From: Cyanidioschyzon merolae
Lineage: Eukaryota
NCBI GenBank assembly: GCA_000091205.1
Contig: AP006493.2
Length of the DNA stretch: 64,000 bases
Reading direction: 5' to 3' (one strand)
The notes under the pieces are model-generated. The model saw nothing but the letters and a program-made list of their open reading frames with translations, made no database searches and had not been told where the DNA came from. Made by a program: the position numbers and the translations under genes. Below are positions 49,112-56,228 of the stretch, in pieces (within the stretch, counting starts at the first letter, position 1; every line of letters starts with the position of its first letter).

Positions 49112-49335
49112 ATATCTGTCTGATCTGCGATCATTGAACCGCACCACAAATCCGCAATTGCGCGTGTACCACCAGCAACGCAGACCGCCACATGCGTTTC
49201 TTTGATAGATCGGATCATTGAATTGTAGCAGGTACCCGCAAGTGCGCGTGTACACCAGCAACGCAGACCGCCACATGCGTTTCTTTGATAGATCGGATCA
49301 TTGAATTGTAGCAGGTACCCGCAAGTGCGCAAGTG
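49112..49335. repeat. ~83-bp tandem repeat, ~2.6 copies
   Basis: Unit 'cagcaacgcagaccgccacatgcgtttctttgatagatcggatcattgaattgtagcaggtacccgcaagtgcgcgtgtacac' at 49166 and 49249, with a partial copy upstream. Confidence 0.85.
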
Positions 49336-49619: not shown

Positions 49620-51809
49620 TTGGTGCATCCCAATATAGGACATATAGGTACATACTGCCCAAGGATGGATGCACCTCCCGCAGCGCATTTGACGCGCGAT
49701 GCGCGTGGCGATTTGAATCAGCGGCTGGCAATCCGCGCGGGTCATCCGGCAAGCTACGCGCGCTGCTCCAGCGGTGCACAACGCAGGCGACGGCACCGAC
49801 AGACGGTTCGCCACCTCGGCTTCGGATTGTCGGGAATGAGCGGCATCCGTGGTACAGCCGAGCGACGAGTGGAGAAGCGGAACCTCCGGAAACAGGGCTC
49901 TTTCAGCTATCATGCTTTGCAAAATCGTCGAGCGAGCGAGCTCGGTTTCTGGTTACCTAGCAGTGCAGCAAAGACGCTATTCGGCTCTCCGCTGTCTCGG
50001 CGATGCTCTCTGGACACGCATCAGGCACCTGTACGATATAACGACCGCTTCAGGAATGATGCGTGGCAACCAGAACTTATCCAAGCACGCGGGGCAGGCG
50101 GAGCGGGGCTACCCACTTGCTCTGAGGCGCAGCGTGCTGCAACGCGTGAGCTGCAGCCTTCGGACACAGGTCGGTCAGGTGGCGACGCTGGTGCGAGTTC
50201 AGCCAAAGCGGGCGACAAGCACCGAACGATAGATGAAAAAGAGTCCAAAAAGCTGTCCAGAAAGGCAGCCGATGACGCACTCGCGGCGCGCAACGTCTCC
50301 GATGCAGCCTACGCCCGTATTTGTGTTGCGGAGCTTCGCAGTGCACTGGATGCGATCCAGAAACGCTGCTTTTTCGCGCGGAAACCAGAGAGCGCACTCG
50401 GAACAGGAGCAACTGAGTTCTGTGCTCGCCTCGCAGCGCGGATTGGAATATGCGTCAGCCAGCCAGACTGTCGATGCCTTGATGTTGGTGCTGTGAGTGC
50501 GGAAAGACCTGCCCAGCACGAGCACCATTCGTCGCGAAACGAAAACGGTGGACGAACAGAATGCGAGAACTGGGCGCTTCTGGTGCGGCGCTTTCACAGA
50601 CTCATCCGCGAGTGGCTCGCAAGGCGAGTCGAAACGGCGCCACTGTCTGCGCACACCGAAGACGGCGCCTGTGGACCAACTGACTCCATGCATCCAAGCC
50701 GTGGCTTGATGCGGTTCCAGAGCGACGCCCTTACAGATGCATCGGATCCAGACAATGGTGATGAGCAGGAAAACGCCACGACGCCTGGCTTGCATCCGAT
50801 TTTCCATGCCTCATCGCTGTCCAGTAAAGCGGCATTGTCGCAGCGATCGATGCCTGCGGAGCCCGAGATCATTCGGCACACTCTCGCCGTCGAAGCGGAT
50901 ATCCAAGATCGTCGAAAGAGAATACTCCAGGACGTATACCGCGAGCGTGAAAGGTCCGCTGCTTTCCCGAACGATGTGTTGCCCGCATCCAGATCATCTT
51001 TACGTAAGGGTTCGCAGCAGGGTGCATACGCAACTGCCGAGCATGAGGATGAGCTGATCCACGCTCTGGAGTTTCTGAGATCGTCCATTAGCGAGAGGGA
51101 AGCTGAGCTCGAGATGCTCACCAACGAGCAGAGTCAGCTGGAGGCGATGCTCCAGGAGCTCCTCGCCAGCTGCGCCCCTGTTACGGCGGCAAGAGTGCGA
51201 GCCAACATCGATTCCAACGGAGTTTCGAATTCAACAAGCGAGTCGCGACCTCGTCGCCCAGTGTCCAGCCCACAGACGAGCGTGCTGGACCCTGCTGACA
51301 CGATCGAATCCAACGATCGACGACGAGCGACGTGCTCCGCGGCTGCCGAACTGGAGCGCCAGGCTTGCGTACCGACGAGCAACACGCGCCAGGACGACAG
51401 CGACTGCCCTGAATCCGCTGATCGTAACAGATTGCATCCACGATGTTTCAGCGAGCCCGGCCCTGAAGAGCTCGTGTCGCAACATTTGGAACGCGAAAAG
51501 GCAGAACAGCGAGCTGCAATGATGTTGCAACTTCTATTCGCTTCATCGACCTCGCCGAGTAAGACCGTTCATCGTCGACGACATGTTGAAATGGTGGCGA
51601 TCGAACTCGTTACTTCAATGCTCGCATTGAAGCCCTCTGGAGCGATCCAGCTCTCGGGCGATGACGACGAAATGATAGCCATTGAGTTCCTCGAGATGCA
51701 CGGTCTCGTTCGTTCTCAGCGTTCGAATCGATGCCTCGCTTCGCCTACGGCAACTCCAGACGGCACCGCGAAAGAGTATTTCTTTACCGAACCTGCGAGC
51801 AACGCGTAA
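49620..51809 (+). CDS. Hypothetical low-complexity/coiled-coil protein (start uncertain, likely downstream of 49620)
   Basis: 729-codon open frame in GC-rich DNA. Ser/Ala/Arg-rich with a predicted coiled-coil segment (…EAELEMLTNEQSQLEAMLQELL…). No recognisable domain. Confidence 0.3.
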   Translation: MVHPNIGHIGTYCPRMDAPPAAHLTRDARGDLNQRLAIRAGHPASYARCSSGAQRRRRHRQTVRHLGFGLSGMSGIRGTAERRVEKRNLRKQGSFSYHALQNRRASELGFWLPSSAAKTLFGSPLSRRCSLDTHQAPVRYNDRFRNDAWQPELIQARGAGGAGLPTCSEAQRAATRELQPSDTGRSGGDAGASSAKAGDKHRTIDEKESKKLSRKAADDALAARNVSDAAYARICVAELRSALDAIQKRCFFARKPESALGTGATEFCARLAARIGICVSQPDCRCLDVGAVSAERPAQHEHHSSRNENGGRTECENWALLVRRFHRLIREWLARRVETAPLSAHTEDGACGPTDSMHPSRGLMRFQSDALTDASDPDNGDEQENATTPGLHPIFHASSLSSKAALSQRSMPAEPEIIRHTLAVEADIQDRRKRILQDVYRERERSAAFPNDVLPASRSSLRKGSQQGAYATAEHEDELIHALEFLRSSISEREAELEMLTNEQSQLEAMLQELLASCAPVTAARVRANIDSNGVSNSTSESRPRRPVSSPQTSVLDPADTIESNDRRRATCSAAAELERQACVPTSNTRQDDSDCPESADRNRLHPRCFSEPGPEELVSQHLEREKAEQRAAMMLQLLFASSTSPSKTVHRRRHVEMVAIELVTSMLALKPSGAIQLSGDDDEMIAIEFLEMHGLVRSQRSNRCLASPTATPDGTAKEYFFTEPASNA

Positions 51810-51907
51810 GCGCTGGACACATACCCGACTCGTACTTGCATAGAGATCTGTCATGACCAATCGGTTATGTATGCATCCCGCTGACATGGTTCGCTACATA
51901 CAGGAAC

Positions 51908-52525
51908 TTAGTGCCTATTCGTTTCTGAGCTTGCCGAGCTTGACACAGTCGCAGCGTCCAGCACGTGCTGAACTTTATCAGCAAATGCTCGTTCCTCCAG
52001 AGCCCGCAGAACCAGATCCGCGCCACCGTCCTCCGCAGTGCCGGACTCGGTGGTCTTTTGTGCTGCTGGCAACCGCCTCCGCGGCCGATAGCTCTGCACC
52101 ATAGCCGTCGGCAGCCGCACCTGGGCCATGGGCGTTGCCGCATTCCACTCCCGCCGCAGCAAGATGCGGAGCTGACGCAGCTCCGCCGCGCTCTCCTGCA
52201 GCTCTCTGTGTAGCTGAAACGCGTTCACATGCTTCTCTGGCGAAGCGCCTTGCCTGCTAGCTTTTGCACTGACGCCGCCCTCCTCTTCCTCGACAAGACG
52301 TGCGAGCTGCGTGGCGCCCTGTCGAAGCTCCCTCACCAGCGCCACTGTTCTACCGCAGAGACGCCCAACAAAGTGCGCAGCCCTCGGGAGGTCCTGCGGT
52401 TTTAGTACCAAGCCGATTCCCAGCGCGAGCACGAAAAGCTGCGTGAACCCACCGTCGTTATACATCAAGCGCGCGACTCCTGGCTCGGTGCCGTACGCTG
52501 CGCTAGAAGCGCATCCGCTTGACAA
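51908..52525 (-). CDS. TatB/Hcf106 (MttA)-family protein, probably a mitochondrial TatB-like twin-arginine translocase subunit. Likely start at the internal Met (MYNDGGFTQLFV…)
   Basis: GFTQLFVLALGIGLVLKPQDLPRAAHFVGRLCGRTVALVRELRQ matches the TatA/B signature (short TM helix with G, then GPxxLP, then amphipathic helix …GRxxGR…). An acidic low-complexity tail follows. Confidence 0.5.
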   Translation of the reverse strand: MSSGCASSAAYGTEPGVARLMYNDGGFTQLFVLALGIGLVLKPQDLPRAAHFVGRLCGRTVALVRELRQGATQLARLVEEEEGGVSAKASRQGASPEKHVNAFQLHRELQESAAELRQLRILLRREWNAATPMAQVRLPTAMVQSYRPRRRLPAAQKTTESGTAEDGGADLVLRALEERAFADKVQHVLDAATVSSSASSETNRH

Positions 52526-52680
52526 GCCAACGAGGTGGTGTGGTTTCGAAGTTGAGAGTGCGCGGTCACAGCACTGTCACCGAACTTTGAAAGCCAGATC
52601 GCTGAAGCAGTGCATCCGCATACCCGCAGATAACCGTCTACGGCACCGTGCAGTGCCTTGTGCAGCTCTCTCGAACGCCT

Positions 52681-52704
52681 CGAGCGCAGCAGCAGCAGCA
52701 GCAG
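52681..52704. repeat. (CAG)n trinucleotide run; similar runs at 14737-14760, 49076-49098 and 62757-62840, and (GCC)n at 57056-57074
   Basis: Direct reading of cagcagcagcag... tracts. Confidence 0.8.
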
Positions 52705-53224
52705 CAGCAGCTCAGTTGATAAAAGCAGAGCGATTTATCGATGCAAACGTTGCTGCGGAGGCTGCGGGTGTGCCGCGGTACCTGCCGAGGTCTCGCTGGC
52801 CGTGCTCACACACGAGCAGATCCCTCCAGCGTCCGCTTGGAACGACGAAAGCTTTCCACCAAACTGGGCATACCCGAGTGCATGGCGGTTATCAATATCC
52901 GGGAAACTGTGCATCATGCGGCACCAGAGCGGCGCTTGTCACCGGCCATTACCCGCAGGTTCCTGCTGGATCGCTCGATACGGCATTCATGTCAGCATAA
53001 AATGGAACAAGCGCTCTAACTCGAGCCTGCACACGAAATCTTGGGACGCTCGTTCCACTGTGATCAACAACCGCCGTTGCATACATTTCTCCTGTTTCGT
53101 TTTTCGCTCTCTAATTTCCGGCTCTAGATCCATTGGTCACTCTTTATCGTCCGGCTCTGCTGCTGGCATTCAGTGGATGATGCTGGTATGGTGCTAGTTC
53201 AGATTTCGCGATAATCCGATGTTG

Positions 53225-55079: not shown

Positions 55080-56228
55080 CTACCTGCAATGATGTCGAAG
55101 CACGATATGCTCCGGTTTGTACTGCGTGATGTCAGGCGACGATACGCCGTATTTTTTTGCAACGAAATTAGCAACTTCCAACTCTTGCAAGCGCGTTTTC
55201 AGCGCTGCGACATTGGCTTCCAGGGAACGGATGTATTCGGCAGCACCCTCGAGGATCGTGGCCCGGTCTGGTTTCCGACCAAACCTGGTTGCATACCCGC
55301 GTACTGCCGGCACCAGACACATGAGCGCGTCTACGCGTGAGGAGATCATGCGGCGACGTTTCTGCTCATGCATCCGATGCGTTTGCCGTGCAGAGTCCCT
55401 TAACCTCTCTCGGTCATTCACAAGCAACGCTTTCGATGATGATCCCGATTCGCCTCGGGATTCATCAGCGCAAGACGTGCTGACCTGTTTCGTCGTCACG
55501 TGATTCGCACAACTGGGGAATGGTCTGTCACTTAATGCATCGCCATCGCATGCAGATGAACCCGACGCTGCAAACGATCCGCGAGTGCCGGTCTCAGAAA
55601 CGCAGTCTGGAGCAGCGATGCCGGCTCTCTGCGTCGCCGACGCCGCACCAGATGCCTGACAGACTTCATTCGTTTCGTTCGGAACGCGCCAAAGATTCGC
55701 AGCACTCTGGCGCTCGCCCGTATGCAGTTGCTCCGGCCAGGTAGAAAGCGCATCCCGCTTTGAAATTCCGCCATTGGTTTCACGCCCGTGTTCCTGAACA
55801 ACATCTTCGTTACTCGGTTGATTCATTACGCCTTCAGCTTCAAGGAGACGAGCTTTCGCGGAGCGCTGCGGACCGTTCTCTGTCCTGTATATCAGTTTCG
55901 GCTCTTTCATAGCCAACGCCGATGCATCTAGCAACAGCTGAAGACTGCTACGTGTCTCGCCGAGACTCAGAGAGCAGGGCTCTACTTCAATGTCTGGCAC
56001 CGAGGAGTCAGAGACTATTGGACGCCACCTTCCCGGAAAGCCCCCAAGTCCAGCCTGACAATGGACACATGTGGCCGCTACATGGGTAGCACCTGTTGAC
56101 GGAGACGACTTGGGCTGAGGCACGGAACTGTAGCTGCGCCAAGCGGGTCGCCCGTCTGGCTCCAACGGCTTTGTCAGGCACGAGACTAGCACACTCGCTT
56201 GCTTGCCTCCCATAACGTGTGACGTCAT
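55080..56228 (-). CDS. bHLH-leucine zipper transcription factor (Myc/Max-type basic region)
   Basis: RQTHRMHEQKRRRMISSRVDALMCLVP aligns with Myc/Max basic region plus helix 1 (H..xE.xRR…L…P). After the loop, helix 2 plus zipper …RATILEGAAEYIRSLEANVAALKTRLQELE. Confidence 0.65.
   Translation of the reverse strand: MTSHVMGGKQASVLVSCLTKPLEPDGRPAWRSYSSVPQPKSSPSTGATHVAATCVHCQAGLGGFPGRWRPIVSDSSVPDIEVEPCSLSLGETRSSLQLLLDASALAMKEPKLIYRTENGPQRSAKARLLEAEGVMNQPSNEDVVQEHGRETNGGISKRDALSTWPEQLHTGERQSAANLWRVPNETNEVCQASGAASATQRAGIAAPDCVSETGTRGSFAASGSSACDGDALSDRPFPSCANHVTTKQVSTSCADESRGESGSSSKALLVNDRERLRDSARQTHRMHEQKRRRMISSRVDALMCLVPAVRGYATRFGRKPDRATILEGAAEYIRSLEANVAALKTRLQELEVANFVAKKYGVSSPDITQYKPEHIVLRHHCR

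Follow-up and report, generated by a model that had tools for sequence, protein, structure and literature searches.

Mitochondrial twin-arginine translocation (Tat) systems are patchily kept relics of the bacterial ancestor, and the only mitochondrial Tat function with experimental support, insertion of the Rieske iron-sulfur protein by TatB together with TatC, is known from land plants. A nucleus-encoded mitochondrial TatB (mTatB, At5g43680 in Arabidopsis) was reportedly described in plants by Carrie and colleagues in 2016; earlier surveys by implication place the red algae in a class that has TatC only. The question raised by a small gene of the red alga Cyanidioschyzon merolae 10D, CMK033C, is whether a red alga might also encode such a TatB. 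The gene lies on the minus strand of a 64,000-nucleotide stretch of contig AP006493.2 (the window, to which all coordinates refer), with its coding sequence (CDS) at 51908..52465. We find that homology of CMK033C to TatB is well supported by profile comparison, and propose that it probably encodes a mitochondrial TatB, the partner of a TatC encoded in the mitochondrial DNA (mtDNA) in translocation of the Rieske iron-sulfur protein.

Homology to TatB

On curated models alone, membership of CMK033C in the TatA/TatB/TatE family fails. A first-pass annotation of the locus, made from the sequence without database searches, had assigned it to the TatB family and suggested a scan with the Pfam MttA_Hcf106 model as a check; that scan was negative, since Pfam TatA_B_E (PF02416) matched neither the 185-residue protein nor a 205-residue version of it discussed below, even at E<=10, and the Pfam matches that did appear (HIP1_clath_bdg and Gag_p12) are noise. 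The NCBIfam model for tatB, TIGR01410, aligned with residues 25-74 at 20.9 bits (E=3.8e-4), below its cutoff of 56.5. The NCBIfam scan nevertheless returned only TatB-type models and none of the TatA/E or cyanobacterial type, and the top two matches in a sequence search of the PDB were TatB chains, at non-significant E-values of 0.48 and 0.78.

Cyanidiococcus and a third cyanidiophyte have close orthologs of the protein (54% and 52% identity, respectively), and profiles were built from these three orthologs (A1), from an 11-sequence eukaryotic alignment (A2) and from a set of bacterial TatB sequences (A3). An exhaustive search of 1.84 billion representative proteins with A1 gave only 14 matches at E<1e-3: the Cyanidiococcus sequence that is part of A1, the ortholog from Cyanidium caldarium, further eukaryote-like relatives, and five short bacterial proteins with E-values of 4e-5 to 1e-3. 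Three of the five bacterial proteins were scanned, and all three pass the TIGR01410 cutoff (67.7-81.9 bits) and match Pfam TatA_B_E. In another A1 match, 1129 residues long, six separate stretches aligned with profile positions 33-70; this protein is more likely to be repetitive or a coiled coil than a Tat relative.

Alignment of A1 or A2 with the bacterial TatBs by hhalign gave a probability of 97.9% over residues 3-71, with about 40% identity across the transmembrane (TM) segment, hinge and amphipathic helix; the accompanying E-value of about 3e-13 is optimistic because A3 was drawn from A1's own matches, so that the library-wide values of 4e-5 to 1e-3 are the fair measure. A hidden Markov model (HMM) of the bacterial TatBs scores CMK033C at 49.1 bits, and the highest of 2000 composition-preserving shuffles at 6.0. 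Because the library-wide E-values, the targets that pass TIGR01410, the hhalign result and the shuffle test agree, the homology to TatB is well supported, albeit outside the curated thresholds and seen by profile methods only; to this extent the family assignment in the first-pass annotation held up in spite of the negative Pfam scan.

The CMK033C gene and its start codon

The CDS encodes 185 amino acids followed by a stop codon, with the ATG at 52465 as start, and its product is identical to the reference protein CMK033C (BAM80428.1; UniProt M1VHN1). The longer open reading frame (ORF) in which it is contained, 51908..52525 (-), includes GFTQLFVLALGIGLVLKPQDLPRAAHFVGRLCGRTVALVRELRQ and would yield the 205-residue version if counted from a TTG at 52525. 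The ATG is preceded, at a distance of 38 codons, by an in-frame TGA (52577..52579, minus strand) with no other ATG in between; the eukaryotic product therefore has 185 residues and begins MYNDGGF, and there is no space for an N-terminal presequence. We therefore regard the TTG-initiated form as an artefact of bacterial-style ORF calling: a TTG start is unexpected in a eukaryote, the 20 residues that it would add are not hydrophobic, and the reference protein and the orthologs begin at the Met. At the six orthologous or related loci checked, in-frame stops lie 2-38 codons upstream, and an alternative upstream ATG is present in none. A start at MYNDGGF had already been preferred to the upstream TTG in the first-pass annotation, and the stop codon, the reference protein and the orthologs bear this out.

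Existing labels for the gene differ: it is a “hypothetical protein” at NCBI, UniRef auto-names both it and the Cyanidium ortholog “TatB,” and the JGI pipelines assign “TatA.” Near-identical metagenomic alleles differ at a single place within the CDS, and with indels in the flanking sequence a count of synonymous and non-synonymous changes was uninformative.

Domain structure of the protein

The sole hydrophobic helix of CMK033C spans residues 7-21 (FTQLFVLALGIGLVL; 52403..52447, minus strand), with a Kyte-Doolittle value of 2.29 over 15 residues, and coincides with a helix at residues 5-20 in an AlphaFold2 (AF2) model. The short TM segment, the amphipathic helix and the acidic tail (net charge -4 over the last 45 residues) agree with the TatA/B-type layout first described for the locus, except that no separate TM segment precedes GFTQLF, since residues 7-21 already form the TM helix. 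Its polar residue, Q9, aligns with E8 of bacterial TatB, in a column that holds Glu in bacteria and plants and Gln in all cyanidiophytes.

A hinge follows at K22-P23 (52397..52402, minus strand), placed by alignment columns and by a break in the AF2 helix at residues 21-22. P23 is invariant over the cyanidiophyte, plant and bacterial TatB sequences, as are the columns of G34 and G38; the Gly usual at the hinge is Lys in CMK033C and Lys or Arg in cyanidiophytes, and one bacterial TatB-like match also has K-P. The basic amphipathic helix, residues 24-60 (QDLPRAAHFVGRLCGRTVALVRELRQGATQLARLVEE; 52286..52396, minus strand), is delimited by its hydrophobic moment (0.56-0.74), by hhalign and by the TIGR01410 alignment, and the net charge over residues 22-50 is +4. 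This first conserved block is common to bacterial TatB, and the pattern LVLKPQDLPRAAHF.GR.CGRTV within it is invariant in three cyanidiophyte genera.

Two further blocks have counterparts in eukaryotic proteins, whereas bacterial TatB lacks both of them. Block 2 is a second helix, residues 82-110 (FQLHRELQESAAELRQLRILLRREW; 52136..52222, minus strand), supported by hhalign, by alignment and by an AF2 helix with a predicted local distance difference test score (pLDDT) of 78-86, and it is common to plant and green-algal mTatB (QVHKELQDTMAQLDAIRHEIR). Block 3, a C-terminal motif at residues 148-162 (GADLVLRALEERAFA; 51980..52024, minus strand), was recognized by alignment, lies within an AF2 helix at residues 149-179, and is shared with plant mTatB (GSDIVLEAILEAEVA) and with other eukaryotic relatives. 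The AF2 model, computed with the 11-sequence alignment as input, has helices at residues 5-20, 23-69, 82-110 and 149-179 with low-confidence linkers between them (mean pLDDT 64.8; predicted template modeling score 0.24), and a Foldseek search with this model against the PDB gave only meaningless long-helix matches at E>2.

Relationship to plant mitochondrial TatB

Plant proteins were absent from the matches of a word-indexed search with the 11-sequence alignment, and were fetched with a bait modeled on At5g43680 that is part of none of the profiles A1-A5; the resulting set consists of database entries named “sec-independent protein translocase protein TatB-like” and one green-algal protein. 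Against the profile of this set, hhalign gave 96.2% (E 2.6e-9, residues 16-104) for A1 and 98.7% (E 2e-16) for A2, and both alignments include the second helix, where FQLHRELQESAAELRQLRILLR in CMK033C is paired with the plant block 2 sequence. An HMM built from the plant proteins only scores CMK033C at 28.4 bits, whereas the maximum among 2000 shuffles is 12.5. Written as patterns, the eukaryote-specific blocks are HRELQ..L.ELR.LR and, at the C-terminus, G[AS]D[IL]V..A..E. The plant family members, like CMK033C, begin directly at the TM segment. The likeness to plant mitochondrial TatB that had been noticed from the sequence alone is thus borne out by the profile comparison, the second helix and the C-terminal motif.

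A probable mitochondrial partner for CMK033C

Retention of tatC in the mtDNA of C. merolae is recorded in Table S1 of Delage et al. (2011, PMC3097184; TatC = 1), and is implied by the observation that Galdieria mtDNA lost tatC after splitting from the other Cyanidiophyceae (Jain et al., 2014, PMC4316638). Every species positive for nuclear TatB in the survey of Petru et al. (2018, PMC6251230) has a mitochondrial TatC (mt-TatC). In keeping with the loss of tatC from Galdieria mtDNA, no match named Galdieria appeared in any search. The best 80 genome loci with the bacterial TatB type that the cyanidiophyte profile ranks highest all belong to Alphaproteobacteria or unclassified Pseudomonadota, with none from cyanobacteria; that the closest bacterial TatBs are of alphaproteobacterial type fits a mitochondrial and not a cyanobacterial ancestry. 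Four lines thus favor a mitochondrial over a plastid partner: the homology to plant mTatB, the missing presequence, the alphaproteobacterial-type ancestry, and the co-occurrence of the family with mt-TatC.

Proposed function

The best model for the function of CMK033C is the Arabidopsis system, in which mTatB migrates together with mTatC, and Rieske insertion and the biogenesis of complex III depend on mTatB (PMC13456617; PMC5855863; PMC8662606); we infer the location, import route, TatC partnership and substrate of CMK033C by homology with it. The protein would be synthesized in the cytosol without a cleavable presequence and imported into the mitochondrion, with the N-terminal TM segment and the basic amphipathic helix probably serving together as an internal signal. 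It would then be anchored in the inner membrane, with the N-terminus facing the intermembrane space and the helices on the matrix side, and with the mtDNA-encoded TatC (ymf16/orfX) it would form a TatBC receptor and translocase there. While complex III is being assembled, this complex would carry the folded iron-sulfur domain of the Rieske protein out of the matrix to the intermembrane-space side, as in plants.

Several points weigh against a mitochondrial TatB. Pfam TatA_B_E does not match the protein, and its TIGR01410 score is less than half the cutoff; in place of the TM Glu that is conserved in bacterial and plant TatB it has Gln, and in place of the hinge Gly it has Lys. The AF2 model is of moderate confidence only, consists of separate helices and led to an uninformative fold search. 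The bacterial comparison set came from A1's own matches, and the plant sequences, which are real entries, are mostly truncated gene models obtained through the bait query. The plastid genome of C. merolae, like those of other red algae, encodes tatC (PMC5217408), a second potential partner. The lack of Galdieria matches covers named matches only and is no more than absence of evidence. Finally, the mitochondrial location and the interaction with TatC are predictions.

Alternative readings

The least improbable of the alternatives, which we nevertheless consider unlikely, is that CMK033C is a single TatA/B-type protein serving both organelles, or a bifunctional mitochondrial TatA and TatB in a minimal two-component translocase. 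It draws on the polar TM residue, which is Gln in cyanidiophytes as against Glu in bacterial and plant TatB; E. coli TatA presumably has Gln at this position as well. The Glu-to-Gln and Gly-to-Lys changes could reflect altered or dual TatA/TatB-like behavior, or nothing at all. No mitochondrial TatA is known in eukaryotes of the TatBC type (PMC6251230), plant mTatB has been suggested to be bifunctional, and plant TatA has been shown to be dually targeted (bioRxiv 10.1101/2020.04.06.026997). The sequence, however, gives no hint of an ambiguous targeting peptide, as CMK033C has no N-terminal targeting peptide at all; moreover, its long amphipathic helix and hinge Pro are TatB-like.

Next in rank, and likewise improbable, is a TatB-derived relic that now acts outside Tat transport, for example as a factor that serves the structure or assembly of an inner-membrane complex independently of TatC. 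The diverged signature residues and the failure of the curated models would be at home in such a protein, as would blocks 2 and 3, which have no bacterial counterpart, and several mitochondrial TatC-only machineries failed to complement E. coli Tat (PMC6251230). Yet block 1 has been strongly kept while the cyanidiophytes diverged over about a billion years, mt-TatC accompanies the family in every species listed (PMC6251230), and in plants the ortholog has a functional link to TatC and to Rieske insertion (PMC13456617; PMC5855863).

Ranked third, and improbable too, is a thylakoid Tat receptor subunit, equivalent to Hcf106/TatB and working with the plastid-encoded TatC. Red-algal plastid genomes, that of C. 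merolae included, encode tatC (PMC5217408), so that the nuclear genome must somewhere include TatA/B-type partners for the plastid, and the generic “TatA” label from the JGI pipelines would accommodate a plastid protein. There is, however, no N-terminal extension that could hold a plastid transit peptide: the TM segment begins at residue 7, a start at the TM segment is kept in all orthologs, and a stop codon lies upstream. A plastid-type control, Esi0067_0034 of Ectocarpus (taken from the supplement of Delage et al., 2011, PMC3097184), has about 80 residues ahead of its TM segment and scores 2.9 bits with the A1 HMM. The closest similarity of CMK033C is not to cyanobacterial or plastid TatA/B, a thin comparison in that it includes one plastid-type sequence; its best bacterial matches are alphaproteobacterial-type TatBs and not cyanobacterial TatA-like proteins, the NCBIfam scan found no TatA/E or cyanobacterial model, and two of its blocks are common to plant mitochondrial TatB and missing from bacterial TatB. 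The plastid alternative is set aside by this argument.

A chance ORF, or a chance likeness of a TM-plus-helix protein to TatB, is effectively refuted: overlapping spurious ORFs abound in this GC-rich region, small proteins of this build carry little information, and Pfam gives no match, but the same start and the three blocks are kept in Cyanidiococcus, Cyanidium and other eukaryotes, synteny with a basic helix-loop-helix (bHLH) gene is conserved, and the HMM scores of 49.1 and 28.4 bits stand far above the respective shuffle maxima of 6.0 and 12.5 (n=2000).

Genomic neighborhood

The window holds ordinary nuclear genes, encoding a PDI-like thioredoxin protein, a pfkB kinase, a RapGAP, TrkH, a DEAD-box helicase, a RabGAP, an MFS transporter and a bHLH protein; no tRNAs were found in its 64 kb, and the GC content is 50-61% throughout. 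These genes, together with the 852,849-bp length of the contig, establish that CMK033C is nuclear-encoded.

Upstream of CMK033C, at 55080-56228 on the same minus strand, is the gene for the bHLH-domain protein (PF00010, E 1.6e-9), and this neighborhood is conserved in related cyanidiophyte contigs (L001-L005). On the other side, a TTG-called ORF of 729 amino acids on the plus strand (49620-51809) converges on CMK033C, with 98 bp between the two stop codons; metagenomic relatives have a gene for 657-714 amino acids at this position, without a Pfam match. Just upstream of the plus-strand ORF, an 83-bp unit is repeated in tandem at 49152-49330 (2.1 copies, 97% identity). A perfect (GCA)8.7 trinucleotide repeat, which reads (GCT)n on the CMK033C strand, occupies 52686-52711 in the intergenic or 5' region, some 220 bp ahead of the start codon of CMK033C. 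ORFs of 80-229 amino acids overlap CMK033C on both strands (for example 52311-53000 on the plus strand, and others within 51850-52450) and look like by-products of the GC-rich composition.

In two other eukaryotic contigs (L006:1730-3766 and L008:4213-6591) a nuclear TatB-like gene is arranged head-to-head with a gene for a UbiE/COQ5-type methyltransferase; this divergent arrangement is conserved, and both genes are putatively mitochondrial.

Evolutionary implications

Nuclear TatB (“eTatB”) was extended beyond plants to oomycetes, ochrophytes and one cryptophyte by Petru et al. (2018, PMC6251230); there are no red algae among the nuclear-TatB-positive species in Table S1 of that study, whose proteome set included C. 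merolae, Galdieria, Chondrus and Porphyridium. Delage et al. (2011, PMC3097184) recorded TatA/B of C. merolae as “not identified,” and in the searchable literature we found no mention of CMK033C. To call a nuclear TatB partner of this kind poorly catalogued, as had been done on first inspection of the locus, was therefore fair. Full novelty cannot be claimed, as UniRef already auto-names the protein “TatB”: CMK033C is a new lineage of a known system, not a new kind of system, and the advance is incremental rather than conceptual.

If CMK033C belongs to the mTatB family, the TatBC type extends to Rhodophyta, and the red algae would shift from the “TatC-only” to the “TatBC” class. The sequence also appears to bridge alphaproteobacterial TatB and the divergent plant proteins, in that an N-terminal domain close to the former is combined with the two eukaryote-specific blocks. 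The other eukaryotic relatives, which are probably stramenopile-like, score 25-41 bits with the red-algal HMM as against 14-28 bits with the plant HMM. From the sequence relationships one might suggest, tentatively and with a chance we would put somewhat short of even, that CMK033C is the least-diverged nuclear TatB known, that all nuclear mTatBs go back to one transfer of a proto-mitochondrial tatB, and that the stramenopile and cryptophyte copies may be of red-algal origin. The single origin and the red-algal donor are speculative; if true, one ancient transfer of the proto-mitochondrial gene to the nucleus would settle the stated uncertainty about the origin of nuclear mTatBs.

Cyanidioschyzon merolae has a single mitochondrion and a single plastid per cell and is amenable to homologous gene targeting. 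It would therefore offer a genetically tractable unicellular model for the pathway, for which Galdieria, having lost mitochondrial tatC, provides a natural comparative contrast.

Comparison with known systems

The job proposed here for CMK033C, topogenesis of the Rieske iron-sulfur domain, is performed in yeast and mammals by Bcs1, an AAA protein that translocates the folded Rieske protein. The import signal of Bcs1 is internal, an N-terminal TM segment followed by a basic amphipathic segment, and CMK033C has the same signal architecture; the import route proposed above draws on this analogy. The likeness ends there: CMK033C has no sequence or fold relationship to Bcs1 and no AAA domain, and its mechanism would be of the Tat type and not ATP-driven.

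Thylakoid Hcf106 (cpTatB) and Tha4 (cpTatA) belong to the same superfamily as CMK033C, follow the same plan of TM segment, hinge and amphipathic helix, and would meet a plastid-encoded TatC in the same cell. The plastid proteins carry N-terminal transit peptides, whereas CMK033C has none; the plastid-type control reaches only about 3 bits with the cyanidiophyte HMM, and CMK033C matches no model of the TatA/E or cyanobacterial type.

With alphaproteobacterial TatB (TIGR01410), CMK033C shares its N-terminal ~70 residues at ~40% identity, from the TM segment to the amphipathic helix, including the P-[KQ]-D-L-P-R hinge and the G-R...G-[RK] of the helix; on the HMM of these bacterial proteins its N-terminal domain reaches 49 bits, compared with 36-42 bits for the plant proteins. 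It differs from them in falling below the curated cutoff (20.9 vs 56.5 bits), in having Q for E8 and K for G21, in possessing two further conserved helices that are confined to eukaryotic proteins, and in being encoded in a eukaryotic nucleus, not adjacent to tatC.

The closest known counterpart is plant mTatB (At5g43680), or eTatB. Overall identity is just about 24-30%; CMK033C has Gln and not Glu in the TM segment, a K-P and not a G-P hinge, and an acidic, Ser-rich linker inserted between helices 1 and 2, and with 185 residues it is shorter than the Arabidopsis protein of 232 (PMC13456617). In both, a nuclear gene encodes a protein that begins at a short TM segment without a presequence, continues through a hinge Pro into a basic amphipathic helix with P.DLP..A...GR..GR, and carries the second helix H[KR]ELQ..L.[EQ]L..[IL]R and the C-terminal G[AS]D[IL]V..A..E; and in both, the host mtDNA retains tatC.

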